This document shows, piece by piece, positions 3,001-51,133 of a stretch of DNA of 64,000 nt; positions within the stretch are counted from its first letter, which is position 1; each line of letters begins with the position of its first letter. The position numbers and the translations under genes were made by a program. The notes below the pieces were generated by a model. It was not told the DNA's origin. It ran no database searches and saw nothing but the letters and a program-made list of their open reading frames with translations. The stretch covers positions 576,001 to 640,000 of the forward strand of contig CM000431.1 of NCBI GenBank assembly GCA_000165345.1. The letters run 5' to 3'.

Positions 3001-6000
3001 ATGAGGGGTCCAAGCATGACAGTAGATACGGCATGTGCATCATCTCTCACTGCAGCATGCATTGCAATGGACAGTTTTAGAAACAAAGAGTGTAATGGAG
3101 CTATAGTTGGCGGAGTAAATGCTTTATTATCCCCGAACCTCTTCATTGCATTCTGCAAGGCTAGAATGCTTTCAGTAGATGGTAAATGCAAAACATTTGA
3201 CGCTTCAGCTGATGGTTATGTTAGAGGAGAAGGATGTGGCGCAATTGTAATTTTAAAGCAAAGTGAACAAAAGAAGCAAAATACTCCTATATTAGGAAGA
3301 ATAAAAGGTTGGGGATGCAATCATGTAGGGAGAAGCGCAAGCTTAACTGCTCCAAATGGTCCTGCACAAACATGCGTCATTAAAATGGCACTTAATCAAT
3401 CAAAATTAAACAGTTCAGATATTGATTACATTGAAACACATGGAACAGGAACAGCATTAGGAGACCCAATTGAGCTAGGTGCATTAAAAAGTGTTTTTGG
3501 AAGAAATGCAGATTATAAAAGATCAACTCCTTTAGTATTAGGAGCATTAAAAAGTAACATTGGGCACTTGGAGGGCGCAGCAGGTATTGCAGGATTAATT
3601 AAGCTGGTCTTAGTTTTAAAACACGAGACTGCAATTAGAATTGCCCATTTGACTAAAATTAATCCTCATTTAGATTTAGAAGACTTTAATGTCATTATAC
3701 CACAAAAAACCGTTTCATTAAAGTGTAATAAAAACAAACTTATTGGTGGGGTCAGTGGATTTGGATTTGGAGGATGTAATACTCACGTAATAGTGGAATC
3801 AACAGAAAAAAACAAATCTGAGGATATAGAGGCAGCTGATTTCTCGAAAAATCATATTTTGTTCGTATTTACAGGGCAAGGCTCACAGTATATCAATATG
3901 TGTAAGGGTATTTATGAAACTGAACCTATATTTAGAGAAAATATGAATTTATGTAATGAAATCGTTTCTAAAATTCTAAATATATCTCTTCTTGATATAA
4001 TCTATCCAATTGATGGTAATAAAGACGCTGAATTTAAAGCTATGAACATGCTAAATGATACTCGTTATGCTCAGCCAGCAATCTTTGCCGTTGAATATTC
4101 CCTAGCACAATTATGGATTTCTAAAGGTATAAAACCAGATTCAGTACTAGGACATAGCCTTGGAGAGTTTATTGCTGCGACTATTAGTCAAGTAATGACA
4201 ATTGAAGATGCATTAACTCTGGTCACACACAGAGCAAGTATCATGGCATCTACACCTGCTCTAGATGGAATCATGGTAGCCTGTAGACTCACTGAATCTC
4301 AAGTTGTTGATACAATTAAAAGATTCGGCCTCGAAGAATCTGCCTCTCTGGCAGCTGTTAATGGACAGAAAAGTGTCACTATATCTGGGAAAAAAGAGTC
4401 GGTATATAAGATTTTGGAGTATAATAATGTTGGTAGTAGATTCAGACGGCTAGATGTTTCTCATGCATTCCACTCTCCACTGGTCAGTGAAGCATCTGAC
4501 AAATTTAGCAAATTATTGGAAAACATCGAACTAAAAAAACCAACTGTTGAATTTATCTCAACCGTTACTGGAAAAAAAGAAATTGAATCAATATCGACTG
4601 CTAAATATTGGTCAAAACATATATTGAACACTGTTCGACTTTCGGATGCAGTTTATCACGCTATTGAATCTGTAAACTCAAGAATGACATTTATTGAGAT
4701 TACATCAAAGCCTATTCTTTCACAATTATTAAAAGCCCTAATACCTGTAAATAGTAGCCACATTTCAGTTAAATGCACATGCAAGCTGGTAAATTCTGAA
4801 ATTGACTTTATTCAACCTTTAGAGGAAATGCAAGAATTCGGTTCAGAAAATTCAAGTTTTACAAATCATGCTAATAACTTAGATGATGATTCTTGGAGGT
4901 TCAAACTCCTGAAACGAAGGCAAATTTCATGGAGTGATATTAGCCATCCAATAATTGCTCCTCTACATGACTTTAATGATATCGAATGGGTCAAGGAAAA
5001 TATATCCATAAGTAAGTCAAATGCAAGAGAACTTGTCGAAAAATTAGAATTTACCTGTATGATTTCACCAGAATTACTTGATTTGTTTGACAACCACAAA
5101 GTATTGGGACAGTCAATCCTCCCAGGAGCTGCCTTTGTCGATTTTATGGCAACAGTAGCATTGAATTATACAAAGTCGCAATTTACTTTAGGAGTAATTG
5201 GAGCAATGCCAGACTGGATTCAATTAAAGGGAATCTTCTTTAGAAACCCATTTATAATGTCTTCTGCAAAACAATACAAATATTTAAATACACAATTTGA
5301 TAGTCAAGACTATTCTGATGAAGATAATTCAAGCCGTAGTTCAGACTTTAATATTATTATGTCAAAAGGTAACAATTGCCAAATAAGCATTGAGTCTTCA
5401 TTGAAAATGGACGAAGAAACCGTTGTATATGCAACATGTGATGAAGTAGAATACGTATCAAGTATTGAGGCACAAACAAAAAGTTTGTGTATAATTTCTG
5501 AATGGCCAAGCAGTGAACTTATTTCAAACTCAAAAAAAGTTTCCCAAGAAGATATCTATGAAAAAATGTCAATTGCAGGTCTTCAATATGGTAGCAGGTT
5601 CAAAACTCTGAAAGAAATGTGGAAAGTTACTTCAAACTCCGCAGTAGGGATAATTCAAAGCGAGCTATTTACTAAAAATTGTGCAGAATCACCAGATAAT
5701 CTTGCAGTTTATGAATCAATAATGAATGAAAGAGGCTTTACAATACATCCGACTCTTTTGGATGGCGTATTGCATATGTGCGCATCTATACTTGGCGATC
5801 AATCAGATAAGGAGACATTTAATGAATTACACAAGCGAGCCACAATGGTACCAATAAGTATAAATAAATGCCTTATCACTTCTAAAATTGACACTTCAAA
5901 GTATATCAAGGGAGAAAAATATTGGGCTTTTGTTCAGCTCAAAAGTTCGGATAAGGACAGCGCAATAGTAAATGTTGCACTGAAAAGTATGAGTGGAGTT

Positions 6001-9000
6001 CCAATAGCAGTGCTTCTCGGAGTTTCACTTCGCTCTGTTAAAAACGGAGTGATTTCTACTCATACTATTAAACATGTAATTCCAAATGAGCTGTTATGGA
6101 GAATTGACTGGGATGAAGTTATTGAAAGCATTACTAATTCTGAAATAGTGTCGCTTCCAACCAAAGTCAATTGCGATAACACAGAAAATGAGTCCTATCA
6201 AGGGATAAACGCAAATCTGGTTGAAAAAAGAAAAGTTTTATTACTTACTAACTCTTGCAATATTAGTAAAAAAGAATTGTATTCCGAATATTTTACTGCT
6301 GATATTGTATGTGAAGCATCAAAACTATCTTTAGCTGAAATAGAGGCAACAATATATGGGAGAGATGATCAAGAATTGCCACCTTCTCCATCAAATGAAG
6401 CAAAGTATGACTTAATTTGTCTCCATATTCCCAATTCAGATAAGAATAAAGCTATTGTTTCATTATTGCCAGTATTATATCTTTGCAAAATTCTAAGATC
6501 AATGTTCGAAAATAAGGAAAGATTAATTCCACGTGTTAGAATAATTACTGAAAACATATTCAATGTAGATGGAATGAATCTTGAATTTAGAACAAATTCA
6601 GGTGTTGCTCCTTTCATTAAGAGCGCTAGACAAGAACTCGAGTTATTCTCTGATCAATCTGTTTCATTAGGATTAATTGATATAGAGACTGCAGAAGACT
6701 TAAATAAAGCTATAATTCTTTCATTTGTGAAAGATATACTTTGTTTCAAAAAAAGAGAAGATATTACTTCTAACGGCACACTTACAGAATCGCAACGTTT
6801 ATTTTTAAATACCGAATATGAGCCAGAGCTTGTGCTAAAAAAGAAAATTAAAGGTAAAGAAGATAACTGTGAAGCTCATTACAGAATAATTACTCCAAAA
6901 CTAGTCAGCTTAAGAGGCGAAGCAGCGATTATTGGTTCTTGTAAGTTAAATTTGAGTTCTCGCGGAGCGATAAATAATTTAGAGTTGTTACCTTTATCTA
7001 ATGAAGAAAGAAAATGTCCATCTGCAAATACTGTTGAAATTAGAGTAAGGTCAATCGGACTTAACTTTAGAGACGTATTAAATGTTATGGGATTGTATCC
7101 CGGTGACCCTGGACCTCCCGGCGGTGATTGTTCTGGTACTGTTGTCGCTGTTGGTGAAGGCGTTAAGCATATTAAAGTTGGTGATAATGTATTTGGAATT
7201 GCTCCTGGATGCTTAAAAACTTATGTTACCACTGATTCAAATTTGTTATGCAAAATTCCAAAAGGATTTACCTTCGAACAAGCTGCTGCGTTACCAGTTG
7301 TTGCAACTACAGTTGAATATTCTCTTAAAGATATTGCGAATATTAAAAAAGGAGATATTGTTCTAGTTCATGCAGTTACTGGTGGCGTAGGATTAATGGT
7401 TGTTCAATATTGCAAAGCAATTGGTGCTAAAGTATACGGCACAGCTGGAAGCGAATCTAAAGTTGAATATGCACTTTCTAATGGTGTTGAGAGGGTAAGT
7501 AGCTCAAGAAATGCTGATAAATTTAAAGAGGATATGAAAGATTTAGAGGGAAAAGTTGATATTGTAATCAATTCATTGATCGAAGACTTTATTCCAAATT
7601 CTTTGAATTTATTGAAAAAAGGTGGTTGTTTTGTCGAATTGGGAAAAAGAGGAATATGGACAGAAGAAGAGATGAAAGAAAAGAGACCTGATATTAAGTA
7701 CAAATGTGTTGCTGTTGATGTAATGATGGAGGAAGATCCTTCTTGGTTTGGGGGAATGCTAACAAGAATAAAAAATTTGGTAGAAGAAGGAATAATCGAA
7801 TCATTACCATTGAAGGTGTTTGATATGAGAGGTTCAGATGAGAATGGAATAGATGCATTCAGATATATGCAAAGAGCGCAACATATAGGAAAGGTTATCA
7901 TCAAAATTCCAACTCCTTTCAAATATTTAGAATTGGATACGGAAAATCATAAGTTAAACAACGTTGGTTCTGAAAAAGAAGATAGACACAACAATGAATA
8001 TGGCATTCATGTGATTACTGGAGGATTAGGAGGAATTGGAAGGATTATTATCAAGTGGATGTTAGAAGAAGGAGTTAGAAAGATTGCAATTTTATCAAGA
8101 AGCGCTAATAATGATTCTTTAAGAGATATCCCAGAAATAAAGGATTATTTGAATACAGATATTATTCAAATAGAATGCATAAAATGTGATGTTTCGATAT
8201 TGTCACAGGTAGAGAGTGCATTTAGGGAGATTTTAGTTAAATTTGGAGAAACGAACCAAATACATGGAATATTCCATGCTGCAGGTATTCTGATGGATGG
8301 AGCAATTGCTTCTCAAACAATGGAAATGATGGAGTCAGTATATGCACCCAAGGTATATGGAGCATGGAATCTACATGAGTGTTGTGAGAAGTTTGACTTG
8401 AATAAAAATTTGAAGCACTTCGTGATGTTTTCTTCAGTTGCATCATTACTGGGTAATTTTGGTCAAACAAACTACTCTGCAGCGAATTCTTGTTTAGATT
8501 CATTGGTTGAATATAGAAGAAATAAAGGAATGTGCGGAACTAGTATACAATGGGGTCCCTGGATTGAACAAGGAATGGCAATGAATATAAAACAACATTT
8601 AGAGAAGGTTGGAATGCATGGAATATCCAATGAAATGGGTATAAGAGTGATTAATGACGTGATCTTATATCAAAACACAGATTTAGATAAGAACTCATTA
8701 GGGAAATACCCAGTAATCACTTGCCAATCATTTAATTGGAATGTATATATGCGTCAATTATATTATAACTCAAAATATCCATCATTCTTCAAAGATGTGG
8801 TTGCATCAATGTCTACTGGAGAAGTAAAGAATATAGGAATGGATTTCAGGGGAATGAGTAAAGAGGAAGTGTACTCGTATGTTAAAGACTCAGTGCATAA
8901 TATAGTAGAACAGATTATTGGAATACAATCGTCAACTCTTGACTTGGACACGCCATTTTCAGAACTTGGGATGGATTCTTTGTCGGCAATTGAGTTGAGG

Positions 9001-12000
9001 AATGCATTAATTTCAAGATTTGGAATTAAGATATCTTCGACAGCATTGTTTGATTACCCAACATTGAGATCAATTATTCAGCATTTGACAGACTCTTTAT
9101 ATGTTTCAGAAACCCGAGACGCATTTTCTGACCTAGGAATGAGTATCTCAGAAAGAGAGTATTCAGTCGCAATAATTGGTGTTTCTTGTAGGCTTCCCGG
9201 TAGAGTAAAGTCATTTAACGATCTTTATGAAATTGTTTTGCTTAAAAGTAAGGATTGCATTACGGAAATTCCATTAGATAGATGGCCATTTGATTTATAT
9301 TATGACCCAGATCCAGATAATAGAAGCAAGTCATATGTAAACCAAGGTGCATTCATAACTGACATTGATCTATTTGATAATACTTTCTTTGGTCTTTCAT
9401 CAACTGAGGCTACAAATGTTGACCCTCAACAAAAATATATGCTTGAGGTAGCATATGAAGCAATGTATAATTCTGGAATTACAAAACGTTCGCTAACTAG
9501 CATCAAAAAAACAGCAAAAACAGGTGATGATCCTGTATTAATGGGAGTTTTTATTGGCTGTTGCAATACGGATTGGCACTTCCTTCAAGCAAAGTTTGGC
9601 TTTGAAAACTTCACTTCTTATACTGGTTCTGGCGGTGCAAGCTCTCTTGTTTCTAATAGAGTATCATATTCGTTTGGATTTAGGGGGCCTTCGCAGACCA
9701 TAGACACTGCATGCTCTTCGTCTCTTGTTGCGATGGATGCAGCTCTAAAGTCGTTGAAAGAAGGCTCTTGTCATACTGCATTAGTTGGAGGCGTAAACTT
9801 AATGCTAAGCCCGCATTTATTTGTAGCATTTTGCCGTGCAAGAATGCTTTCTCCTGATTGTAGATGTAAAACATTTGACGCCTCTGCAAATGGATATGTT
9901 AGAGGAGAGGGATGCGGCGCAATTTTATTAACTAAGAGATCAGAAATAGGTGGAAAAAAAATTAGGCCAATTGCATATGTGTTGGGATCTGCAACAAATC
10001 ATAATGGGAGATCTGCAAGCCTCACAGCTCCAAATGGTCCCTCACAAACAGAAGTTATTCAAAATGCCCTAAGAAATGCTAGATTAACTCCTAATGATAT
10101 TGATTACCTAGAATCTCATGGAACAGGAACTCCTCTTGGAGATCCTATAGAGTTTGGTGCGTTAAAGACGGTTTTTGGAAACAAAAAGGATATTAAGAGA
10201 AGTCAACCTCTTATTCTTGGAGCTCTGAAAACGAATATTGGTCATCTTGAGGGCGCAGCAGGTGTTTCAGGACTACTAAAGTTAATCTTGGTGTTGAAAA
10301 ATCGTATTGCACCAAAAATATTGCATTTCCAAAAACTTAATCCTCATATTGATACTGAGAACTTCGACGTTGAATTCCCAACTGAGTTAAAACCTATTAT
10401 TTCTAATAAATCAAAATTAGTTGGTGGTGTGAGCTCATTTGGGTTTGGAGGATGTAATTCCCATGTAATTTTGGAATCTGCCTCTGCCAACGAATTGAAT
10501 ACTGAAAGTAGCCAAAATAAAAACTATCCATATTTGATATTTGCGTATACTGGCCAAGGATGCCAATATATTAATATGTGCAAGCAACTGTATGATACGG
10601 AAGAAGTTTTTAGAAATGAAATGGATAAATGCAATGAACTTTTATATCCAATATTGGGGAGATCATTAATTTCAACAATATATTGTGAAAAAACTATGGA
10701 GAGTGAGAAGTTGATAAATCATACATCAATTTCTCAACCAGCAATATTTTCAATTGAATATTCATTAACTAAACTGTGGGAATCAAAGGGTATAGTTCCA
10801 TCTGCAGTAATGGGTCATAGCCTTGGAGAATTTGCAGCAGCAGTTACTAGTGGGATCTTATGCCTCAAAGATGCCATCACTCTAGTTGCAAGGAGAGCAG
10901 AAATTATGGCGTCTCTTCCTCAGAATGATGGAATAATGGTTGCTTGCAGGGTTTCAGAAGATCAAGTATTAGATTCTATTAATAAATTGAACTTAAAAGA
11001 TTCTGCAGCAGTTGCTGCAATAAATGGTCCAAAGAGCGTAACGATATCAGGAAGCAGGAGTTCAGTAATGCAGGTCCTGAATAATTTGGGTATGGAAGAC
11101 AGATATAAACAACTTGATGTTTCTCATGCATTCCATTCTCCTTTGGTTAGCTCTGCTGAAGAAAAGTTTGAAAAAGTAATAGAAAATATTCAATTTTTCG
11201 AGCCAAAATTAACATTCTTTTCTTCTGTAACGGGTAATATTGAATCTAAATTGTTAATAGAAAATAAATATTGGGCACAACATATTATACATTCTGTTAG
11301 ATATTATGATGCACTTGAGACTGCAATTTCCACAGATGAAGAAAACATAGCAATTATCGAAATTGGACCTAAGTCTGTTCTTACCTCGATGGGCAAACAA
11401 GCAGTAGGAGGCATTCAATTAGTACAAAGCTCAAATGAAAATATTTCAAATAATGAATTGACATGGATTCCAACAATTGATAATTCAAAATCAAATACAA
11501 TTGATTTCAATGATGCGCTAAAAGCTGCTCGGGAATATATAAAATATATTTCAGAAAGCGTTTGTGTTCATAAATGGAACCACTCTAGGTTCCATTGGGC
11601 AGATTTGACATCTGTCCACCCCTTATTGGGAAAGTTTTATTCATCAATTTCAGATGAAAATTATCTTGCTTATTCCACTGATATGCTAAAATCTAAAGTA
11701 TTTAAAAACATTGTAGAAGATCATGTTATTTTTGATACAAATATTATTCCCGCAGCAGCATTGATTGAGGCATCTGCATGCGCAGCATTTAAATTACAAA
11801 GGTCTGAAAAGTTCCCATCTAAATACGTCGAAATGGATTCAATGGATATTGAAAAGCCATTAGTATCAAATCAAGATGAAACTACATCTGAAATGGAAGT
11901 CTTTGTTGCAAAAAGTGGAGCAATTCAAATAAGGAAAAAATGCATTTCCGAAGCATTTGAATATGAAGAAGAATTTTCTGGACCACAAATAATTGCCAAT

Positions 12001-15000
12001 GATACAGTATTTAGTAATAGTAGAATTTACCATCATGCATCTATTTCAAACTCTAGAATACTTAGCAAGGATGAAGTAGATAAACAATGTTTCCCAAATT
12101 TAGTGGATTATTTAGAAAAGTATTCATCAAAAGATACAATGGAAGTCCCCATTGACAATATTTACAAAATGATGAATGAAATTGGTCTACAATATCAAAA
12201 AAATTATCAATGCCTTAAAACTGTAAAAGTAAAAATTGATAATAGCAACGATGAAAAAAAAATAAAGAGTTCAGGAAGCAATCAGATAAATGAGGTATTC
12301 TGCTATGTTAAGAGGCCAATAAGTGATTTTGACCTAACTGAGCTTAGGATTCACCCTGGAATGCTTGATTCAGTATTTCAAGCATCCTCAGTTTTGTTTG
12401 CCTCTGATGAGTTATTAGAGGGCAAAGATACGACAAAAAATAAGAGAGGACATGTTGCAATGGCTCCAATTGGATTCACTAAGTGTTTTTATGGAAGAAT
12501 ACAACATAATTCTGATGTTTGGGGTCTAGTGAAATTAAATCGATTTGAAAAAAAAGGAAATATAGCATTTATTGATGTAACTTTGTGGGATAGCAAAACA
12601 AATATTTTGGCAGCGCATTTCCAAGATTTAATTTTAAAAGGATTTTCGAACGCAGCATCGTTACTGTCCCAAGAAGTCAGAATTCCAAACCAGTTTTTGT
12701 GGAGAACTTATAATAAAAAGATAGTAGATAGAACTAATTATATTGAAAATAGCAGTACATTTGAACAAGAAAATAAAGAAGATCAAGATAAAGAGTTCAA
12801 CAGTGAAGACTCCGATCATGATAACCAAATCCAAAAGATTCTTATCTTTGGAATACCAACTGTAATTAAGGAATTGATTTGTAGTAAAATGGACAATAAA
12901 TACAAAAAGATTTCAACCACATTTATTTGTTTAGAAGAAGATCTAACGATTGACCTGATTGATCAGAAAATACAAGAAGAAAACTGGTCTGCTATGTTTT
13001 ATTTAGGTGGTTTAATGGATAATCTCTCAAGTAAGCAAGTTATGGGCGATATTTTAAAAATATCGCAGGTAATTTCAACTATTTCTGTATCTATTACAAC
13101 CGCACCATTTGTTTGTTTAACTTCATTTAATGATTGCAAAGAAGATGGGAACATTCCTAGACATTCAGGAATTAAAGGTTTTGTGAAAACAGCTAGAGTT
13201 GAACTTGAAAATGTCATAGGAAAATCAATAAACATTTCTCATATTGAGTGCAATTCGAGTTTGGTAAACGATCCAGAAACTCTTATGAGGACAATAAGTT
13301 ACATAGCCTCAATATATGAAGGAAAGATTGAAGAGGAAATTACTTTGGAAAGAGATTTAACTATATCTGAAAGTGGAATTTATGCCCCCAGATTAGAAAG
13401 TATTAATTTCCCTGTTTTTGGTGCAATTAAATTAACAATGTCATCTAGGGGAGCAATTGGAAACCTTAAATTCAAGCCACAACCACAATCTGAAAGAGTA
13501 AATCCACCTGCAAATACTGTTGAAATTAGAGTAAGGTCAATCGGACTTAACTTTAGAGACGTATTAAATGTTATGGGATTGTATCCCGGTGACCCTGGAC
13601 CTCCCGGCGGTGATTGTTCTGGTACTGTTGTCGCTGTTGGTGAAGGCGTTAAGCATATTAAAGTTGGTGATAATGTATTTGGAATTGCTCCTGGATGCTT
13701 AAAAACTTATGTTATCACTGATTCAAATTTGTTATGCAAAATTCCAAAAGGATTTACCTTCGAACAAGCTGCTGCGTTACCAGTTGTTGCAACTACAGTT
13801 GAATATTCTCTTAGAGATATTGCGAATATTAAAAAAGGAGATATTGTTCTAGTTCATGCAGTTACTGGTGGCGTAGGATTAATGGTTGTTCAATATTGCA
13901 AAGCAATTGGTGCTAAAGTATACGGCACAGCTGGAAGCGAATCTAAAGTTGAATATGCACTTTCTAATGGTGTTGAGAGGGTAAGCAGCTCAAGAAATGC
14001 TGATAAATTTAAAGAGGACATGAAAGATTTAGAGGGAAAAGTTGATATTGTAATCAATTCATTGATCGAAGACTTTATTCCAAATTCTTTGAATTTATTG
14101 AAAAAAGGTGGTTGTTTTGTTGAATTAGGAAAAAGAGGAATATGGACAGAAGAAGAGATGAAAGAAAAGAGACCTGATATTAAGTATAAATGTGTTGCTG
14201 TTGATGTAATGATGGAGGAAGATCCTTCTTGGTTTGGAGGAATGCTAACAAGAATAAAAAATTTGGTAGAAGAAGGAATAATCGAGTCATTACCATTGAA
14301 GGTGTATGATATGAGAGGTTCAGATGAGAATGGAATAGATGCATTCAGATATATGCAAAGAGCGCAACATATAGGAAAGGTTATCATCAAAATTCCAACT
14401 CCTTTCAAATATTTAGAATTGGATACGGAAAATCATAAGTTAAACAACGTTGGTTCTGAAAAAGAAGATAGACACAACAATGAATATGGCATTCATGTGA
14501 TTACTGGAGGATTAGGAGGAATTGGAAGGATTATTATCAAGTGGATGTTAGAAGAAGGAGTTAGAAAGATTGCAATTTTATCAAGAAGTGCTAATAATGA
14601 TTCTTTAAGAGATATCCCAGAAATAAAGGATTATTTGAATACAGATATTATTCAAATAGAATGCATAAAATGTGATGTTTCGATATTGTCACAGGTAGAG
14701 AGTGCATTTAGGGAGATTTTAGTTAAATTTGGAGAAACGAACCAAATACATGGAATATTCCATGCTGCAGGTATTCTGATGGATGGAGCAATTGCTTCTC
14801 AAACAATGGAAATGATGGAGTCAGTATATGCACCCAAGGTATATGGAGCATGGAATCTACATGAGTGTTGTGAAAAGTTTGAATTGAATAAAAATTTGAA
14901 GCACTTCGTGATGTTTTCTTCAGTTGCATCATTACTGGGTAATTTTGGTCAAACAAACTACTCTGCAGCGAATTCTTGTTTAGATTCATTGGTTGAATAT

Positions 15001-18000
15001 AGAAGAAATAAAGGAATGTGCGGAACTAGTATACAATGGGGTCCCTGGATTGAACAAGGAATGGCAGCAAATCTTAAACAACATTTAGAGAAGGTTGGAA
15101 TGTATGGCATATCCAATGAATTGGGTATTCGTGTTTTGAACGACATTCTATGCTTTGTATCAAAAAGTAGCTCTGTTATTGGTTGTCAGTCACTGAAATG
15201 GGATACGTTTATGCGCCGTTACAATACGATACCAACATTTTTAAGTGAAGTCGATTACAGTTCTCAGGGTAGATCACAAGGTCGTGTTGACATAAGCAAG
15301 CTGTCTGACGAGGAATTGGTTGTTGTCATTGCTCAAGTTGCTCAACAGTGTGCTAGTTCTCCGACATTACCAAGCCCAGATACTGTTTTGTTAGATTTAG
15401 GATTGGATTCATTGGGAGCTGTTGAATTCAGGAATTCAGTACTTGAAATGACAGGAGTTAAATTGCCGCAGACACTTGTTTTTGAAAACCCTACAATATA
15501 TGCAATTTCTATGTATGTAAGGGATCAAAATTCAGGAAACTCTACAAAATCAGATTCTAAAAAACATTCCCAGACTTCAAACGAACAAGCAAAGATGACA
15601 ATTGAGCAGTGGCTTCTATCTTCACTCAAACAGTCAGAAAGGTATATTTTATATGCTGAAGCTTTTGAAAAAAAATACCAAACAATCAGTAATTTAATTA
15701 CTGAGACTGATATTATTAGTGCATTAGAAGAGTTGGGAGTTGAAAATAATCAGGATTATGATCTATTATATGTTTCTTGGAATGAATTAATTTCTTCTGA
15801 AGAGGAAAATAGTAAGAAGCAAAATGATAGCAATAGCAAAAAACTTGAACAGGAGTTAATATTCGATCCTATTGCGGATGTAGAAGAGATCAAAAATTCC
15901 ATGAAATTAGATTTGGATGGGATATCAACAACAACTGACCCATCAGAGTTCAAAACCGCACTTTTGACAGGTGTAACAGGATTTGTTGGTAGAATATTGC
16001 TCGTGAAACTAATTGAAGAGTTTAAGAATATGCAGATTGTTTGTCTTGTAAGAGCAAGCAGCTCTGAAAAAGGCTTAGAAAGAATAATTAATGTTTGTGA
16101 AGAGGCAGAAGTGTGGAATCCAACCTATGCTTCTAGGATTATTGTCGAATGTGGAAACTTCGAAGAGGAGTATTTAGGACTTTCAGAAGAGAGATATTAT
16201 GAATTATGTAAAGAAATCGACGTTGTTTATCATATTGGAGGTGATGTTAATCTATTAAGTAATTACAAGAGATTAAGAAAAACAAACACTCTTTCACTTG
16301 TTGGTATAATAAATTTTTGTACAACTATCAAGCTTAAGCACTTGCATTTCTCTTCTACACTTGGACAGTTTCCAGCATTTTTTGCGGTATTTACCAGGGA
16401 GTTTGAAAATGCAGTTGTTAAGGAAACAGAAGGGCCATCTACGAGAGAAATGAGCAGATTGTTTCCTCCTACAAGACAAGGGTATCCTTGGAGTAAGTGG
16501 GCAGCTGAACAAATATTAGAAACTGCTCATCAACAAGGACTTCCACTTTCAATTTACAGACTGCCAAATACATATATTGCATCAGATACAGGTTATACAA
16601 ACAAAACTGATTATGCAACAGCTTTATTGATCGCTTCAATTTTGGAGGGTATGTTCCCTATTGGTTCATCAACTGCGCCATTGACACCTGTTAATACAAT
16701 ATGTGAAATAATAATATCTGCATCTAAAAAGAAAGAAAGGAAGCATTGGAGATATAACTTATTAGACACAAGAATTTTAGGAAAAAAACATGTTGAAGCT
16801 TGGGCATCTCAATTAGGGCTAGGAAATTATAAAGGCGTTGCTATTGATGAATTCTTCAGTGCAATTAAAAGTAGAGGGCCAGAAAGCCCAATTTTCAAAT
16901 TTGTACCATTAATGCAATACTGGAGGCACTATTGGTTTGATAATACTGAAAGAACTCAACCTTTTCCAGTAGATACATCGAATGTTTCTGAAGATATGCC
17001 TGAAATTTCATGGCCACCGTTGGAGATTACTTTTCAAAACTCATTTTTATACTGCGCAAAAAGAGGTTATTTCCCATCAAACTCTTCTTCAATTTCCTTC
17101 ACTCCAATTAAATGTTACAGCGATGCTTTAAATGAAATTAAAGCAGAATTAAGTTTAAGAAATGTTAATTTCAACCAGAATAAGTATGATTTTATTTGCA
17201 GAAAAATGCAAAAAAATGCAGACTCGATTTACGATTCATTAAAAAAAGTTTCGCTCAATTTCTGTGCTAAATATTCTTACTACATACTTCTGAAGCAATC
17301 TATAGTAAATCAATATATTGTTCAAGAGTCCCTCAATGATTCAATTTTAGAAAAGTTTAAAATGATGGATTGCTACTTTATTACGGGAACATCGTTTGAG
17401 GAAATATTGGAGTTGAGAAGAGTAATCAGAAAACTACTAAATAATTATAATGAATTAAAATTTGTTGACATTGCTTGTCCTTATCTTCCAACGAAGAATT
17501 CAAGAAGACTTATTTTAGAACAACTAAAAATCGCAACATCTATTTTACCATTAAAAAGATTCGAAGCTGTGGATTTGGATGAAATATTGACAGACGACTC
17601 CATTTTGTTAGAAATGTTTATGTTTGCTCCGTTTACCTTACCATTGATATATGGAAAAGAGTATTTTGAAGAATACAAAAATAAAATTACAGGTTGTTCA
17701 GAGGTAATGGAAGCATATTCATCGTTTAAAAATTACATTATTCAAACTCTAATAAAGAATAATTACAATACTGAATATCCGATTATTTTTAGTTCTCCTT
17801 TCCATTTACCTTTTGTAAAAGAAATTTTACAGATTTTTGAGAACTCTAAAATTATTGTTGTTGATAATAAACCAGATAATTCGACCATTCAAGGGAAGTT
17901 GTCAATGGTAAAATCTTTAAAATCAAAATATACGAATCTAGATGTTAGCGAAGAAGAAAATTCAGAGGTATATTTGCTAGACATCCTTGAGGAAATGAAG

Positions 18001-18138
18001 CATAGATTTGTTATCAATGAACCCAGCATTGATAAAAATAGGCTAATTTATCTCAAAGATTTTGGAGAGATACACAATGAAAAGATAAGTGTACAGTTAC
18101 AAGATTTCTGTTCCACGAGTATAGACAGTAGATTTTAA
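1..18138 (+). CDS. Type I multifunctional fatty-acid/polyketide synthase, C-terminal ~6045 codons (5' end outside window), intronless
   Basis: The frame is open from nt 1; the track ORF starts at a GTG at 109 only because of the start-codon rule. Stop codon at 18136-18138. Domain order inferred from motifs: ER-KR-ACP, then two full KS-AT-DH-ER-KR-ACP modules, then an NAD(P)-binding thioester reductase and a ~370-aa C-terminal tail. This architecture (three full modules plus terminal reductase) matches what is described for the Cryptosporidium FAS1/PKS1 megasynthases; it cannot be assigned to FAS1 or PKS1 from this partial window. Confidence 0.9.
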   Translation, partial: NENICIPNNSGLWGLAKSANLEISSLLTNFSQPIKSVDLEITDFSDNQYLRKTIGSLVRWIGNFEYSSLKEKENLIFKFEREFSITSKNIYVNRINKFHKQIVGPVELFMQNRGSISNLSLIESEPIQLEKLNDYEVVMRVKSIGLNFRDVLNVMGLYPGDPGPPGGDCSGTVVAVGEGVKHIKVGDNVFGIAPGCLKTYVTTDSNLLCKIPKGFTFEQAAALPVVATTVEYSLKDIANIKKGDIVLVHAVTGGVGLMVVQYCKAIGAKVYGTAGSESKVEYALSNGVERVSSSRNADKFKEDMKDLEGKVDIVINSLIEDFIPNSLNLLKKGGCFVELGKRGIWTEEEMKEKRPDIKYKCVAVDVMMEEDPSWFGGMLTRIKNLAEEGIIESLPLKVFDMRGSDENGIDAFRYMQRAQHIGKVIIKIPYLAGIGDNSIPEECLITGGSGSLGLVLTETLLNEGITNISIISRSGIESQSDSIKAKWEKLFKRILNNKNGNSGIRFFNIDIGNKDSVYKLINTEFKNLKHIFHLAGVLSDSNIETQTRESIEEVFKPKAIGAWNLHNICEELGLNKELKTFVMYSSIASGLGNFGQTNYSAANSCLDSLSQYRVSKGLSSRSIQWGAWDEDGMAMNIRQHLGLVGMSPISKTTGQQVIFDLITTQIYEENRKSATIMCLPIKWKTYINTIYSGENIPQFSLVNTNLRTKRQQNTILLKMSKEERETYIEKQIISLSKSILGVEIKSLDQPLQDIGIDSLAALEFRNALSKKFNIKLSATTLFDYPTIRGIKDHISEKLSVKESIYETNKTQISNLILSQDNLSDDNVGVIAGLACRFPGGCNTPDTLWKSLIRGYSINPLSGKMFNSVGGAFCASREIPIQRWNHNLVYNADPDKTGKCYSYKACFIDSIDMFDNSKFGITNIEAKHMDPQQRIVLETCYEALVAAKIKEETLIGFQMGVFIGCCSNDWSFLQSRKGMAPFTGTGAANTTISNRVSYVFGMRGPSMTVDTACASSLTAACIAMDSFRNKECNGAIVGGVNALLSPNLFIAFCKARMLSVDGKCKTFDASADGYVRGEGCGAIVILKQSEQKKQNTPILGRIKGWGCNHVGRSASLTAPNGPAQTCVIKMALNQSKLNSSDIDYIETHGTGTALGDPIELGALKSVFGRNADYKRSTPLVLGALKSNIGHLEGAAGIAGLIKLVLVLKHETAIRIAHLTKINPHLDLEDFNVIIPQKTVSLKCNKNKLIGGVSGFGFGGCNTHVIVESTEKNKSEDIEAADFSKNHILFVFTGQGSQYINMCKGIYETEPIFRENMNLCNEIVSKILNISLLDIIYPIDGNKDAEFKAMNMLNDTRYAQPAIFAVEYSLAQLWISKGIKPDSVLGHSLGEFIAATISQVMTIEDALTLVTHRASIMASTPALDGIMVACRLTESQVVDTIKRFGLEESASLAAVNGQKSVTISGKKESVYKILEYNNVGSRFRRLDVSHAFHSPLVSEASDKFSKLLENIELKKPTVEFISTVTGKKEIESISTAKYWSKHILNTVRLSDAVYHAIESVNSRMTFIEITSKPILSQLLKALIPVNSSHISVKCTCKLVNSEIDFIQPLEEMQEFGSENSSFTNHANNLDDDSWRFKLLKRRQISWSDISHPIIAPLHDFNDIEWVKENISISKSNARELVEKLEFTCMISPELLDLFDNHKVLGQSILPGAAFVDFMATVALNYTKSQFTLGVIGAMPDWIQLKGIFFRNPFIMSSAKQYKYLNTQFDSQDYSDEDNSSRSSDFNIIMSKGNNCQISIESSLKMDEETVVYATCDEVEYVSSIEAQTKSLCIISEWPSSELISNSKKVSQEDIYEKMSIAGLQYGSRFKTLKEMWKVTSNSAVGIIQSELFTKNCAESPDNLAVYESIMNERGFTIHPTLLDGVLHMCASILGDQSDKETFNELHKRATMVPISINKCLITSKIDTSKYIKGEKYWAFVQLKSSDKDSAIVNVALKSMSGVPIAVLLGVSLRSVKNGVISTHTIKHVIPNELLWRIDWDEVIESITNSEIVSLPTKVNCDNTENESYQGINANLVEKRKVLLLTNSCNISKKELYSEYFTADIVCEASKLSLAEIEATIYGRDDQELPPSPSNEAKYDLICLHIPNSDKNKAIVSLLPVLYLCKILRSMFENKERLIPRVRIITENIFNVDGMNLEFRTNSGVAPFIKSARQELELFSDQSVSLGLIDIETAEDLNKAIILSFVKDILCFKKREDITSNGTLTESQRLFLNTEYEPELVLKKKIKGKEDNCEAHYRIITPKLVSLRGEAAIIGSCKLNLSSRGAINNLELLPLSNEERKCPSANTVEIRVRSIGLNFRDVLNVMGLYPGDPGPPGGDCSGTVVAVGEGVKHIKVGDNVFGIAPGCLKTYVTTDSNLLCKIPKGFTFEQAAALPVVATTVEYSLKDIANIKKGDIVLVHAVTGGVGLMVVQYCKAIGAKVYGTAGSESKVEYALSNGVERVSSSRNADKFKEDMKDLEGKVDIVINSLIEDFIPNSLNLLKKGGCFVELGKRGIWTEEEMKEKRPDIKYKCVAVDVMMEEDPSWFGGMLTRIKNLVEEGIIESLPLKVFDMRGSDENGIDAFRYMQRAQHIGKVIIKIPTPFKYLELDTENHKLNNVGSEKEDRHNNEYGIHVITGGLGGIGRIIIKWMLEEGVRKIAILSRSANNDSLRDIPEIKDYLNTDIIQIECIKCDVSILSQVESAFREILVKFGETNQIHGIFHAAGILMDGAIASQTMEMMESVYAPKVYGAWNLHECCEKFDLNKNLKHFVMFSSVASLLGNFGQTNYSAANSCLDSLVEYRRNKGMCGTSIQWGPWIEQGMAMNIKQHLEKVGMHGISNEMGIRVINDVILYQNTDLDKNSLGKYPVITCQSFNWNVYMRQLYYNSKYPSFFKDVVASMSTGEVKNIGMDFRGMSKEEVYSYVKDSVHNIVEQIIGIQSSTLDLDTPFSELGMDSLSAIELRNALISRFGIKISSTALFDYPTLRSIIQHLTDSLYVSETRDAFSDLGMSISEREYSVAIIGVSCRLPGRVKSFNDLYEIVLLKSKDCITEIPLDRWPFDLYYDPDPDNRSKSYVNQGAFITDIDLFDNTFFGLSSTEATNVDPQQKYMLEVAYEAMYNSGITKRSLTSIKKTAKTGDDPVLMGVFIGCCNTDWHFLQAKFGFENFTSYTGSGGASSLVSNRVSYSFGFRGPSQTIDTACSSSLVAMDAALKSLKEGSCHTALVGGVNLMLSPHLFVAFCRARMLSPDCRCKTFDASANGYVRGEGCGAILLTKRSEIGGKKIRPIAYVLGSATNHNGRSASLTAPNGPSQTEVIQNALRNARLTPNDIDYLESHGTGTPLGDPIEFGALKTVFGNKKDIKRSQPLILGALKTNIGHLEGAAGVSGLLKLILVLKNRIAPKILHFQKLNPHIDTENFDVEFPTELKPIISNKSKLVGGVSSFGFGGCNSHVILESASANELNTESSQNKNYPYLIFAYTGQGCQYINMCKQLYDTEEVFRNEMDKCNELLYPILGRSLISTIYCEKTMESEKLINHTSISQPAIFSIEYSLTKLWESKGIVPSAVMGHSLGEFAAAVTSGILCLKDAITLVARRAEIMASLPQNDGIMVACRVSEDQVLDSINKLNLKDSAAVAAINGPKSVTISGSRSSVMQVLNNLGMEDRYKQLDVSHAFHSPLVSSAEEKFEKVIENIQFFEPKLTFFSSVTGNIESKLLIENKYWAQHIIHSVRYYDALETAISTDEENIAIIEIGPKSVLTSMGKQAVGGIQLVQSSNENISNNELTWIPTIDNSKSNTIDFNDALKAAREYIKYISESVCVHKWNHSRFHWADLTSVHPLLGKFYSSISDENYLAYSTDMLKSKVFKNIVEDHVIFDTNIIPAAALIEASACAAFKLQRSEKFPSKYVEMDSMDIEKPLVSNQDETTSEMEVFVAKSGAIQIRKKCISEAFEYEEEFSGPQIIANDTVFSNSRIYHHASISNSRILSKDEVDKQCFPNLVDYLEKYSSKDTMEVPIDNIYKMMNEIGLQYQKNYQCLKTVKVKIDNSNDEKKIKSSGSNQINEVFCYVKRPISDFDLTELRIHPGMLDSVFQASSVLFASDELLEGKDTTKNKRGHVAMAPIGFTKCFYGRIQHNSDVWGLVKLNRFEKKGNIAFIDVTLWDSKTNILAAHFQDLILKGFSNAASLLSQEVRIPNQFLWRTYNKKIVDRTNYIENSSTFEQENKEDQDKEFNSEDSDHDNQIQKILIFGIPTVIKELICSKMDNKYKKISTTFICLEEDLTIDLIDQKIQEENWSAMFYLGGLMDNLSSKQVMGDILKISQVISTISVSITTAPFVCLTSFNDCKEDGNIPRHSGIKGFVKTARVELENVIGKSINISHIECNSSLVNDPETLMRTISYIASIYEGKIEEEITLERDLTISESGIYAPRLESINFPVFGAIKLTMSSRGAIGNLKFKPQPQSERVNPPANTVEIRVRSIGLNFRDVLNVMGLYPGDPGPPGGDCSGTVVAVGEGVKHIKVGDNVFGIAPGCLKTYVITDSNLLCKIPKGFTFEQAAALPVVATTVEYSLRDIANIKKGDIVLVHAVTGGVGLMVVQYCKAIGAKVYGTAGSESKVEYALSNGVERVSSSRNADKFKEDMKDLEGKVDIVINSLIEDFIPNSLNLLKKGGCFVELGKRGIWTEEEMKEKRPDIKYKCVAVDVMMEEDPSWFGGMLTRIKNLVEEGIIESLPLKVYDMRGSDENGIDAFRYMQRAQHIGKVIIKIPTPFKYLELDTENHKLNNVGSEKEDRHNNEYGIHVITGGLGGIGRIIIKWMLEEGVRKIAILSRSANNDSLRDIPEIKDYLNTDIIQIECIKCDVSILSQVESAFREILVKFGETNQIHGIFHAAGILMDGAIASQTMEMMESVYAPKVYGAWNLHECCEKFELNKNLKHFVMFSSVASLLGNFGQTNYSAANSCLDSLVEYRRNKGMCGTSIQWGPWIEQGMAANLKQHLEKVGMYGISNELGIRVLNDILCFVSKSSSVIGCQSLKWDTFMRRYNTIPTFLSEVDYSSQGRSQGRVDISKLSDEELVVVIAQVAQQCASSPTLPSPDTVLLDLGLDSLGAVEFRNSVLEMTGVKLPQTLVFENPTIYAISMYVRDQNSGNSTKSDSKKHSQTSNEQAKMTIEQWLLSSLKQSERYILYAEAFEKKYQTISNLITETDIISALEELGVENNQDYDLLYVSWNELISSEEENSKKQNDSNSKKLEQELIFDPIADVEEIKNSMKLDLDGISTTTDPSEFKTALLTGVTGFVGRILLVKLIEEFKNMQIVCLVRASSSEKGLERIINVCEEAEVWNPTYASRIIVECGNFEEEYLGLSEERYYELCKEIDVVYHIGGDVNLLSNYKRLRKTNTLSLVGIINFCTTIKLKHLHFSSTLGQFPAFFAVFTREFENAVVKETEGPSTREMSRLFPPTRQGYPWSKWAAEQILETAHQQGLPLSIYRLPNTYIASDTGYTNKTDYATALLIASILEGMFPIGSSTAPLTPVNTICEIIISASKKKERKHWRYNLLDTRILGKKHVEAWASQLGLGNYKGVAIDEFFSAIKSRGPESPIFKFVPLMQYWRHYWFDNTERTQPFPVDTSNVSEDMPEISWPPLEITFQNSFLYCAKRGYFPSNSSSISFTPIKCYSDALNEIKAELSLRNVNFNQNKYDFICRKMQKNADSIYDSLKKVSLNFCAKYSYYILLKQSIVNQYIVQESLNDSILEKFKMMDCYFITGTSFEEILELRRVIRKLLNNYNELKFVDIACPYLPTKNSRRLILEQLKIATSILPLKRFEAVDLDEILTDDSILLEMFMFAPFTLPLIYGKEYFEEYKNKITGCSEVMEAYSSFKNYIIQTLIKNNYNTEYPIIFSSPFHLPFVKEILQIFENSKIIVVDNKPDNSTIQGKLSMVKSLKSKYTNLDVSEEENSEVYLLDILEEMKHRFVINEPSIDKNRLIYLKDFGEIHNEKISVQLQDFCSTSIDSRF
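409..1290 (+). other. Enoyl reductase (ER, MDR/zinc-ADH-like) domain, module A
   Basis: VVMRVKSIGLNFRDVLNVMGLYPG...; NADPH fold motif VHAVTGGVGLMVVQYCKAIGAKVYGTAGS. Confidence 0.8.
451..1270 (+). repeat. Intragenic direct repeat copy 1 (ER coding segment, ~0.82 kb)
   Basis: Nucleotide sequence from gtattaaatgttatgggattgtatcccggt... onward is near-identical to 7075-7900 and 13561-14386; only a handful of substitutions. Confidence 0.9.
1318..1930 (+). other. Ketoreductase (KR) domain, module A
   Basis: Rossmann motif ITGGSGSLGLVL; SDR-type YSAANSCLDS region. Confidence 0.75.
2160..2390 (+). other. Acyl carrier protein (PP-binding) domain, module A
   Basis: LGVEIKSLDQPLQDIGIDSLAALEFRNAL with phosphopantetheine-site Ser in DSL. 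Confidence 0.8.
2476..3815 (+). other. Ketosynthase (KS) domain, module B
   Basis: Active-site Cys in TVDTACASSL; HGTGTALGDP and NIGHLEGAAG His motifs. Confidence 0.85.
3850..4740 (+). other. Acyltransferase (AT) domain, module B
   Basis: FTGQGSQY entry motif; GHSLGEF active-site Ser. Confidence 0.85.
4930..5800 (+). other. Dehydratase (DH, hot-dog) domain, module B
   Basis: HxxxGxxxxP motif HKVLGQSILPGAAF; C-terminal LDGVLHM segment. Confidence 0.7.
7039..7905 (+). other. Enoyl reductase (ER) domain, module B
   Basis: Same motifs as ER of module A; nucleotide sequence almost identical. Confidence 0.8.
7075..8580 (+). repeat. Intragenic direct repeat copy 2 (ER+KR coding segment, ~1.5 kb)
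   Basis: Near-identical to 13561-15066 over ~1.5 kb, and to copy 1 over the ER part. Offsets between copies are 6624 and 6486 nt. Confidence 0.9.
7990..8600 (+). other. Ketoreductase (KR) domain, module B
   Basis: ITGGLGGIGRII Rossmann motif; YSAANSCLDS. Confidence 0.75.
8870..9080 (+). other. ACP domain, module B
   Basis: LDLDTPFSELGMDSLSAIELRNAL. Confidence 0.8.
9160..10480 (+). other. Ketosynthase (KS) domain, module C
   Basis: IDTACSSSL active-site Cys; HGTGTPLGDP; NIGHLEGAAG. Confidence 0.85.
10520..11400 (+). other. Acyltransferase (AT) domain, module C
   Basis: YTGQGCQY; GHSLGEF. Confidence 0.85.
11590..12420 (+). other. Dehydratase (DH) domain, module C
   Basis: HPLLGKF...IIPAAALIEAS hot-dog motif; IHPGMLDSVFQ. 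Confidence 0.65.
13525..14390 (+). other. Enoyl reductase (ER) domain, module C
   Basis: Third near-identical ER copy. Confidence 0.8.
13561..15066 (+). repeat. Intragenic direct repeat copy 3 (ER+KR coding segment, ~1.5 kb)
   Basis: See copy 2. The copies diverge at ...aaacaacatttagagaaggttggaatg... Confidence 0.9.
14475..15085 (+). other. Ketoreductase (KR) domain, module C
   Basis: Nucleotide sequence identical to the KR of module B over about 0.6 kb. Confidence 0.75.
15300..15500 (+). other. ACP domain, module C
   Basis: LLDLGLDSLGAVEFRNSV. Confidence 0.8.
15940..17000 (+). other. Terminal NAD(P)-dependent thioester reductase (R) domain
   Basis: LLTGVTGFVGRILLVKL glycine-rich NAD-binding motif immediately after the last ACP; YPWSKWAAE (Y..K) region. 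This is the chain-release domain expected at the C-terminus. Confidence 0.7.
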
Positions 18139-49354: not shown

Positions 49355-49449
49355 TTTGTTTCAATTAATTGGGAAAAATTCCGTGTCGTATAGCATCTGC
49401 CCCACTTAAGGTTGCCGCTTTATGGCGGTGTTTTTATACTATAGACATT

Positions 49450-50519
49450 CTAAATCTTTTTTTTTAGTGCTCTTTCTCGGATATATTTGGTCTGTGATAT
49501 TCTTATTTTATTCCAAATTGGTCGAGGGATCATATTTGCCTGAATACAAAGTATCAAAAAGTAGTTACACTCTTTATTTTACTTACTATTAATAGTTGTA
49601 TTCGATGACCAAAATAAGGAACAACCGTCGAGTAAACCGATGGAGTTTTTTTAAGCATCTTTATAGATTCAACAGAAAACCTAAGAAACCAATCAAGATG
49701 CTATAAAAATAATAGCTTACTACTTACCTTTTTGTTGAAATTGTGAACAAGGTTTCTCTTTTGGCTTTTGATAGTTTAGTGGTAACTAGTAAAGGAGTAT
49801 GGCATTGGATTGTGATATTCTCGGACTCACATTCCGCTCGTAAACTTCTACATAGAGATTCGGCGACACTTTTTGTAGCGGCATACGCGGAATAGAGAGG
49901 GTCAGTCTGAAGCTGTGACGACCCACTTCCTATACACAAAATGGCTCCCCGATCCCTAAGCATATGCATTATTTATTTAGTAAAGTTTGAAAGCACTACT
50001 CACCTCTTTTTCATGTAGCTGTAAACAATGCGAGTCATCATTAATACAGACCTAACATTCACTTCTATTAATTCATTAATTAGATCCAAACTAGTCTCTT
50101 CAAAATATTGTGCATACGGATATGAGATGCCAACATTATTTATTAGAATCCCAACATCATCAATTGAATTCAAATATCCGCAAAAATTTGAGTAACAAGT
50201 CGGGTCAGTAAAATCCATTAAATAATACCTTATTTCTTGATTTGAATCTGGTTTTTTCAAGGATAGCAACTAGGGCAAGAATTAGTATTTTTGAAGCATA
50301 TTTAAAGCTTACCTCATTTACAACATTTTGCAGCTTTTCTCTATTTCTTCCTATTAAAATTAAGTTTAAATCTTCTTTAAACAATTCCTTTGCCATTGCT
50401 TTTCCAATTCCGTCGCTTGCGCCAGTTATAATTGCCCAACTTCCAAATGAAGTAAGTTTTTTCTCAGGTCTGTTGAGCAAGAGAAATAATTTGTTTATGG
50501 CCATAGAAAGATAATTCAT
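49450..50519 (-). CDS. Very-long-chain 3-ketoacyl-CoA reductase (HSD17B12/IFA38-type SDR of the ER fatty-acid elongase), 5 exons (50519..50313, 50269..50004, 49955..49728, 49680..49587, 49539..49450); introns 43, 48, 47, 47 nt
   Basis: Three track ORFs (50205..50540, 50000..50269, 49724..49969) plus two further exons assemble into a 294-aa protein colinear with human HSD17B12. Matches: WAIITGASDGIGKAMAKEL / WAVVTGSTDGIGKSYAEEL; VGILINNVGISYPY / IGILVNNVGMSYEY; GAILCIGSGSS...YSAYAATKS (YxxxK); HTPLLVTTKLSKAKRETL; C-terminal PIWNKIRISQTKYIREKALKK / PSWIYLKIVMNMNKSTRAHYLKK. Donors GAG|GTAAGC, AG|GTGAGT, AG|GTAAGT, ATA|GTAAGT. Confidence 0.8.
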
Positions 50520-50668
50520 TATTAATTTAATAAAATTCAAGCAAATAATTCCTGCTATTTTACTAATATTAACTCATTGCGGCAGGAATTTTACTTAAGC
50601 ATAAATTCATTTGATCTTTTTTTTCTTAATCTGGAAGATGTTAACATTTATTTTCATATACTTTAAAC

Positions 50669-51034
50669 TTACTTTAGATCTTCTAATTCTGTCTCTTGAA
50701 CCTTAACAAAAAGGCAAGTGCAACATTTATACAAGATTATCAAAGTCATCCCCAATATAACCAACGACAACAAAACAAGACATAAATAAATCCACCATGG
50801 CCATGCTGATGCACAAATATTTGACATGGTATTTTGTCGGCAAGATGTAATTGAATCCACTTTTGATGTACAGAAAAATTCTGAACTACTCGAAACTTTA
50901 CAAGGCGAACAAAACTTAGAAAGCTGGCATTCGCCACAAGACTTAATTGATCTGCAAATATTAAATATATCGACTTCGGTCAATTCATTGCGACCGAAGG
51001 CAGAAGTTCTATTCACTAAGATGCTGCTACTCAT
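50669..51034 (-). CDS. Hypothetical small Cys-rich protein with a C-terminal transmembrane helix
   Basis: CGECQLSKFCSPCKVSS...; TM WPWWIYLCLVLLSLVILGMTLIILY; short Cys-rich tail. The track ORF extends to 51100 from a TTG; the first ATG is at 51034. No family recognised. Confidence 0.4.
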   Translation of the reverse strand: MSSSILVNRTSAFGRNELTEVDIFNICRSIKSCGECQLSKFCSPCKVSSSSEFFCTSKVDSITSCRQNTMSNICASAWPWWIYLCLVLLSLVILGMTLIILYKCCTCLFVKVQETELEDLK

Positions 51035-51055
51035 GTTTATTTTAAAAAAATTTAT

Positions 51056-51064
51056 GGGGGGGGG
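51056..51064. repeat. G9 homopolymer (C9 on the minus strand)
   Basis: tttatgggggggggtgaagc. It lies in the 5' region of the Cys-rich TM protein gene, and is coding (PPP) if the upstream TTG-initiated frame were used. Confidence 0.9.
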
Positions 51065-51133
51065 TGAAGCAAGATTCAATACCGCAGATAAAATATACAA
51101 TTAGCTGAAAATCTATGTAAAACAAAATTCAAA

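Follow-up and report, generated by a model that had tools for sequence, protein, structure and literature searches.

The 64,000-nucleotide stretch of DNA analyzed here (the window; NCBI GenBank assembly GCA_000165345.1, contig CM000431.1, positions 576,001 to 640,000 of the forward strand) belongs to Cryptosporidium parvum chromosome 3 and carries, on its minus strand at 49450-50519, a five-exon gene that is very probably the C. parvum ortholog of very-long-chain 3-oxoacyl-CoA reductase, or 3-ketoacyl-CoA reductase (KCR or KAR). As judged from sequence comparison, this gene stands alone, starts at an ATG at 50519 and encodes a classical short-chain dehydrogenase/reductase (SDR) of 294 amino acids (aa), and its position near the fatty acid synthase gene CpFAS1 is coincidental. 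The exons were joined by script from the minus-strand reading of window positions 49200-50800 (Table 1). Splicing of the five exons (207+266+228+94+90 nt) yielded an 885-nt coding sequence (CDS) that was in frame throughout, with a single, terminal stop codon, as the initial annotation had proposed for a five-exon SDR on this strand. The open reading frame (ORF) list showed the gene as larger fragments at 50205..50540, 50000..50269 and 49724..49969 and small ones at 49554..49658 and 49450..49557. All four introns were of the GT..AG type, with lengths of 43, 48, 47 and 47 nt and a GC content of 26-30%. The donors had been given as GTAAGT or GTGAGT, which was correct for introns 2-4; intron 1 begins with GTAAGC. 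The product contains the expected motifs TGASDGIGK (residues 32-40), NNVGISYPY (113-121), YxxxK (YAATK, 182-186) and PIWNKI, and it ends in ...PIWNKIRISQTKYIRERALKKKI with the tail YIRERALKKKI, so that the YIREK reported earlier must be read as YIRER. A search of positions 48500-51500 against Rfam gave zero matches.

The gene had been described as hidden, but it is annotated in public records of C. parvum, C. hominis, C. tyzzeri, C. meleagridis and others. The C. parvum IOWA-ATCC protein QOY42589.1 / WRK31474.1 (CP044420.1, 'Steroid dehydrogenase kik-i, partial', 281 aa) matches residues 1-281 of the five-exon model exactly, sharing its ATG and all four introns, and its locus was identical to the window base for base over 1779 nt. 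Its gene span of 1028 nt consists of 843 coding nt and 185 nt of introns, the intron total also obtained here. The introns of the IOWA-ATCC annotation are stated to be 100% supported by RNA-seq, and its genes to have been curated by hand (PMC8744675). The QOY42589.1 CDS, flagged 'partial', ends at ...RISQ (window position 49492, minus strand) and lacks a stop codon. Past this end, the identical genomic DNA continues in the same exon for 13 more in-frame codons (49491-49453, TKYIRERALKKKI), followed by TAG, to position 49450. The exact 294-aa sequence was absent from a collection of 15 billion proteins.

We also compared the five-exon model with public ortholog models, which were supplied by a 90% cluster of public proteins. 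C. parvum Iowa II XP_001388111.1 (234 aa, 'steroid dehydrogenase kik-i') is the same as residues 1-234, and C. hominis CUV05123.1 and C. tyzzeri TRY52302.1 are likewise 234 aa long; these models share the first three exons, run into intron 3, end at ...TISTKR with a stop codon and lack exons 4-5 (60 residues). Several other models read through intron 4 (VSKIKSVTTF, then a stop codon), and the C. felis model and one C. canis model delete a segment of exon 3 that includes the catalytic Ser168. The 389-aa C. hominis protein OLQ17210.1 is named 'Very-long-chain 3-oxoacyl-CoA reductase 1', and the C. meleagridis model is 380 aa long. Judged against the eight-species comparison described below, many of the public ortholog models are wrong, being truncated in intron 3 or 4, fused to upstream sequence or devoid of the catalytic serine segment. 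The gene, its family and its four introns were already known publicly; what is new is the completed C-terminus and the exposure of the inconsistent public models.

The orthologous loci of C. parvum, C. meleagridis, chipmunk genotype I, C. ubiquitum, C. canis, C. felis, C. ryanae and C. xiaoi were then aligned. This comparison revealed the four introns at the same positions, each with GT..AG, in all eight species, and their lengths (41-68 nt) differed by non-multiples of 3. The exons displayed 66-78% mean pairwise identity with zero gapped columns, and the introns 45-57% identity with 5-29 gapped columns. Variable columns were distributed over codon positions 1, 2 and 3 as 135, 90 and 263, of 295 each. 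When the five-exon model was projected onto each species, the ORF was intact in eight of eight and the tail was conserved, with the forms ...IRE[RK]ALKKKI, ...IRERAIKKIKVS, ...IRERALKKKET, ...IRERALRKKN and ...IREKALKKRN. The C-terminal end is of the dilysine type (...ALKKKI, with K at -3 and -4), and the canonical pattern was present in seven of the eight species, C. ryanae having ...LRKKN. The order of genes was also common to all eight: PP4R3, M24 peptidase, a small gene, the reductase and Nup98-96. No ortholog from C. muris, C. andersoni or C. baileyi was found among the best 120 protein matches, although more distant Eimeria and Plasmodium proteins were; in these gastric and avian species the reductase may be missing, unannotated or mis-modelled.

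The gene has no single long ORF and its oldest public model is truncated at 234 aa, features that would also be expected of a decayed pseudogene or of chance ORFs. There is practically no likelihood of either, given a spliced CDS that is intact in all eight species, the signature of purifying selection and a complete set of catalytic residues.

Membership of the family was assessed by profile and protein searches. The product matched the Pfam family adh_short over residues 28-226 (E = 6e-39), and its best protein matches were Cryptosporidium 'steroid dehydrogenase kik-i' proteins. The Pfam match and the plant KCR1 matches at E about 1e-50 lie well outside what chance would give. The nearest named relatives from other genera were very-long-chain 3-oxoacyl-CoA reductases of the KCR1/HSD17B12 family, with 36-48% identity and colinearity over the full length. 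The first matches outside the genus, at E = 1e-47 to 1e-74, were apicomplexan proteins, plant KCR1 and a K10251-named JGI protein. The apicomplexan matches, at 40-48% identity, comprised Eimeria proteins, Plasmodium 'steroid dehydrogenase' and gregarine transcripts. Dozens of plant 'very-long-chain 3-oxoacyl-CoA reductase 1' proteins were found at 1e-47 to 1e-53, a range that also included a JGI protein named '17beta-estradiol 17-dehydrogenase / very-long-chain 3-oxoacyl-CoA reductase'; the best solved generic SDRs reached 5e-17 only. Alignments with 11 and with 61 relatives were colinear from about residue 20 to the C-terminus, the family-specific last ~65 residues included. As a lead only, human HSD17B12 aligned colinearly with 36% identity over residues 24-292 (E = 1e-46). 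Taken together, these matches bear out the earlier description of a full-length SDR colinear with the HSD17B12/KCR1 family. The accompanying claim that every exon junction falls where homology resumes was accurate for junctions 2-4, at which no indel was present; junction 1 abuts a variable loop and shows a 4-residue indel relative to the human protein. Across 62 KCR-family sequences T32, G33, D36, G37, I38, G39, R58, N140, S168, Y182, K186, H259 and P270 were invariant, as was G116 across KCRs, and N113, N114, P255, R286 and K292 were nearly so. The C. canis ortholog, 296 aa long and colinear with the five-exon model, was modelled with AlphaFold2 (AF2; pLDDT 95.1, pTM 0.92). The prediction shows a seven-stranded Rossmann fold with one helix at the N-terminus (residues 2-16) and two at the C-terminus; the nearest solved folds were HSD17B13, 11beta-HSD1 and FabG.

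By homology, the best functional assignment is that of the 3-ketoacyl-CoA reductase of the endoplasmic reticulum (ER) elongase, as initially suggested. By analogy with the family, the enzyme would bind NADPH through TGASDGIGK and R58, and its N140/S168/Y182/K186 tetrad would reduce the 3-ketoacyl-CoA delivered by the ELO-type condensing enzyme CpLCE1 to 3-hydroxyacyl-CoA. This reduction would be the second step of each two-carbon elongation cycle and would take place on the cytosolic face of the ER, and the KKKI C-terminus would fit a dilysine (KKXX) ER-retrieval signal. C. parvum is reported to rely on salvaged fatty acids, and its characterized ELO-type elongase, LCE, prefers C14-C16 substrates (PMC7773987). 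The other elongase partners, a dehydratase and an enoyl reductase, would be encoded outside the window. A literature search found nothing specific to this Cryptosporidium reductase or its activity.

A member of the HSD17B12 family could also act outside the elongase, as a steroid reductase or another carbonyl reductase. The legacy name 'steroid dehydrogenase kik-i' agrees with such a role, and the missing N-terminal anchor described below could mean an altered location or role. However, the name was inherited from the mammalian HSD17B12 homolog and does not derive from an assay, neither the family-specific C-terminal region nor the dilysine-type end has been lost, and the parasite's characterized ELO-type elongase needs a reductase of this kind (PMC7773987). 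No second KCR-like C. parvum protein was present among the best 120 protein matches. We consider a non-elongase role very unlikely.

Several observations weigh against a stand-alone elongase reductase as modelled here. The functional assignment depends on homology, and the public model QOY42589.1 carries its 'partial' flag. Codons 1-17 are weakly constrained (58% identity, no clear third-position bias), and six public models, from C. hominis, C. meleagridis and others, fuse an upstream ORF to the gene. Finally, the N-terminal transmembrane helix that was present in 10 of 10 non-Cryptosporidium KCRs checked is absent. The maximum hydropathy before the glycine motif, on the Kyte-Doolittle scale with a 19-residue span (KD19), was 0.31 in C. 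parvum and 0.14 in C. canis, compared with 1.84-2.74 in the ten other KCRs, where the helix lies 20-40 residues before the motif. No segment with KD19 >= 1.5 was found anywhere in the C. parvum or C. canis reductase. Because this helix is absent, anchoring in the ER membrane is putative. The anchor is an accessory and not a catalytic feature, and membership of the KCR family is kept but flagged.

In view of the missing helix, we propose that the Cryptosporidium protein would attach to the membrane by other means, namely a short hydrophobic N-terminal helix, the C-terminal helices or elongase partners. The N-terminal 15 residues form a moderately hydrophobic and moderately amphipathic helix (mean hydrophobicity H 0.24-0.43 in seven of eight species, hydrophobic moment muH 0.35-0.58), which could give monotopic membrane attachment. 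The KAR ATG was conserved in eight of eight species, and upstream of it the frame stayed open over only 4-18 codons, which were unrelated between species. A longer N-terminus, read in frame from upstream of the ATG, was also considered: in C. parvum, 18 open codons (VNISKIAGIICLNFIKLI) resemble a transmembrane helix, and a phase-compatible acceptor lies at ATG-43. This extension was rejected because C. meleagridis has a 1-nt indel that closes the frame, and the other species have unrelated sequence there.

The small gene upstream of the reductase encodes a 133-aa protein and ends 71 nt from the reductase ATG; it stands as a separate gene in the IOWA-ATCC annotation. Its product is Cys-rich in the N-terminal half, has a single transmembrane helix that is strong (KD19 2.85) and carries a tail that is short and basic. 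No Pfam family matched it, even at E <= 10, and word-index and exhaustive HMMER searches found homologs only in Cryptosporidium. Its cysteine spacing, C-x5-C-x2-C-x6-C-x2-C..., may resemble that of a PSI-type domain.

Six public models join this gene to the reductase (C. hominis OLQ17210.1, C. ubiquitum, C. meleagridis, chipmunk genotype, C. felis and C. ryanae), with junctions that are specific to each species. If the real C. parvum product were such a fusion, the upstream ORF (51034-50673) would be spliced from the donor at 50672 to an acceptor within KAR exon 1 (CAACAG followed by A, first base 50469), removing a 203-nt intron and giving a protein of ~400 aa in which the upstream transmembrane helix takes the place of the absent KCR anchor. 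In C. parvum this junction keeps the reading frame (...EDLK joined to PEKKLTSFG), with the small-gene donor at 50672 in phase 2. The public C. hominis and C. ubiquitum models use a junction of the 50469 type, and in the C. meleagridis and chipmunk-genotype models the acceptor lies 3 nt upstream. The upstream ORF ends in a strong transmembrane helix at a distance from the glycine motif similar to that of KCR helices, the KAR itself being devoid of one, and the restriction of this ORF to the genus was also counted in favor of a fusion.

In contrast, the RNA-seq-curated IOWA-ATCC annotation and C. xiaoi have two separate genes, and the small protein stands alone in C. meleagridis, C. canis and C. 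bovis records. The fused public models differ in their acceptor (ATG+50, +47, +38 and -10), and C. ryanae and C. xiaoi have no AG acceptor at the homologous site. While the KAR ATG is shared by all eight species, the frame upstream of it is not conserved. Codons 1-17, which would be intronic in a fusion, are open in all species, their sole indel being an in-frame one of 6 nt, and in the alignment with other KCRs their juxtamembrane ...F[IL]RPxKxL segment is matched by KAR residues 8-18 (INKLFLLLNRP). The 42-nt intron, tail peptide and stop position of the small gene are conserved between species, and its tails have been kept despite indels: LRKKRSNEFMLK, LKKKKRSNEIYS and LRGKKKSSEIYS, and SRNSYKNQDNDL versus SRNSHKNQDNEL, each followed by the stop. 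Because of the two-gene annotations, the varying acceptors, the conserved ATG, the open codons 1-17 and the conserved small-gene tail, we judge that the public fusion models are probably artifacts, and a fusion as the real product is quite unlikely. It is unlikely, too, that Cryptosporidium, having lost the N-terminal KCR anchor, regains one in at least some transcripts by alternative splicing from the 50672 donor to the 50469 acceptor; the chimeric product would then be a type I membrane protein in which a Cys-rich domain in the lumen and a transmembrane helix are joined to a cytosolic reductase with the KKKI end.

The proximity of the reductase to the megasynthase had been stressed in the initial annotation. 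The MEGASYNTHASE ORF at 109..18138 (+; 6009 aa) runs off the start of the window and corresponds to CpFAS1. Its ketoacyl synthase (KS), acyltransferase (AT), dehydratase (DH), enoyl reductase (ER), ketoreductase (KR) and acyl carrier protein (ACP) domains and terminal NAD_binding_4 reductase identify a fatty acid synthase (FAS) of type I. The distance from this ORF to the reductase was 31.3 kb, in agreement with the 31 kb initially given. Between them, on both strands, lie genes for a DDI1-like aspartyl protease, a proteasome alpha subunit, RPA, a UTP15-like WD40 protein, a cyclic-nucleotide phosphodiesterase, a DBP10-type helicase, a prenyltransferase subunit and Nup98-96, together with unassigned ORFs. 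The statement that the reductase is functionally downstream of the type I FAS is unsupported, as the genes of the interval are unrelated and CpFAS1 has its own KR domains and releasing reductase. CpFAS1 is loaded with long-chain acids and releases only chains of at least C20 through its own reductase domain (PMC2995488), and its loading domain prefers C16:0 (PMC7773987). Should there be any link between the elongase and CpFAS1, the elongase would precede CpFAS1 and not follow it, because LCE works on C14-C16 and CpFAS1 is loaded with C16.

In favor of a shared pathway locus, in which KAR is functionally clustered with CpFAS1, are the long acyl chains that both enzymes act on and their location on the same chromosome at a distance of 31.3 kb. 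However, at least 11 unrelated genes of mixed orientation separate them, and the neighbors of KAR (PP4R3, M24 peptidase, the small Cys-rich gene and Nup98-96) are syntenic in eight species and unrelated to lipids. CpFAS1 has its own KR, DH and ER domains, and its substrates are ACP-bound chains (PMC2995488). The 31.3-kb interval showed no adjacent or co-oriented genes of a single pathway, as would be seen in a lipid-synthesis cluster, and functional clustering is hardly credible.

Table 1. Coordinates of the reductase gene, the neighboring small gene and a conserved non-coding motif in the window
Feature	Position	Strand	Description
Neighboring Cys-rich gene, 133 aa	50591..51034	-	exon 51034-50673, 42-nt intron 50672-50631, tail exon 50630-50591
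Conserved non-coding motif CTGCCGCAATGA	50574..50585	-	between upstream gene stop and KAR ATG; conserved island in gapped intergenic stretch; single copy in window
KAR exon 1	50313..50519	-	207 nt; ATG 50519-50517; codons 1-69; N-terminal helix, TGASDGIGK NADP(H)-binding motif, R58
Intron 1	50270..50312	-	43 nt, GTAAGC..TAG, phase 0; 41-51 nt across eight species, 56% identity, 16 gapped columns
KAR exon 2	50004..50269	-	266 nt; codons 70-158 (first two bases of codon 158); NNVGISYPY, N140; 72% identity, zero gapped columns
Intron 2	49956..50003	-	48 nt, GTGAGT..TAG, phase 2; position kept, 44-68 nt across species
KAR exon 3	49728..49955	-	228 nt; codons 158-234; catalytic S168, Y182, K186
Intron 3	49681..49727	-	47 nt, GTAAGT..TAG, phase 2
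KAR exon 4	49587..49680	-	94 nt; codons 234-265; 66% identity, zero gapped columns; carries P255, H259
Intron 4	49540..49586	-	47 nt, GTAAGT..CAG, phase 0
KAR exon 5	49450..49539	-	90 nt; codons 266-294 and TAG stop 49452-49450; KKKI dilysine-type end

Further features were observed around the gene. Two conserved non-coding islands, CACCGCCATAAAGCGGCAA and AAGTGGGGCAG (49412-49430 and 49397-49407, minus strand), lie between the reductase stop and the start of Nup98-96 and share a GCGGCA core on opposite strands. These islands may be promoter elements, and CTGCCGCAATGA is a candidate promoter or 5'-untranslated region (UTR) element. The Nup98-96 gene starts 95 nt downstream of the reductase stop; it occupies 43937-49354 (-) and encodes a 1805-aa FG/GLFG-repeat nucleoporin of the Nup98-96 type, with Nucleoporin2 and Nup96 domains in the public record. 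Elsewhere in the window, long ORFs at 28128-29783 (+), 31377-32759 (-), 36637-38019 (-) and 59278-60222 (+), of 551, 460, 460 and 314 aa, had no Pfam family at E <= 1e-4.

The biological importance of these findings is small, and their practical value lies in curation. The 294-aa model completes a 'partial' reference with a conserved 13-residue C-terminus that includes the dilysine-type end. The correct full-length sequence aids expression and inhibitor work, since fatty-acid elongation is deemed a drug-target pathway in a parasite without de novo fatty-acid synthesis. The lost N-terminal membrane anchor is a modest, testable peculiarity.

Compared with known systems, the protein is closest to the KCR family (plant KCR1, human HSD17B12 and yeast IFA38/YBR159W; EC 1.1.1.330), with 36-41% identity and colinearity over the catalytic domain and the family-specific C-terminal helices. 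It shares with this family TGxxDGIGK, NNVG, the N-S-Y-K tetrad and a basic or dilysine C-terminus. In contrast to the family, it has no N-terminal transmembrane helix and only ~25 residues before the glycine motif, where its relatives have 40-70; the gene differs in its four very short introns, and its function is assigned by homology. The fused public models, OLQ17210.1 and similar, share the catalytic core of the reductase, and OLQ17210.1 also shares the functional name, but several of them treat intron 4 wrongly or lack part of exon 3. HSD17B13 and 11beta-HSD1 share with the C. canis model the classical SDR fold, an N-terminal helix associated with the membrane and additional helices at the C-terminus (TM-score 0.71-0.77); however, they have only 18-21% identity and belong to other SDR families with other substrates.

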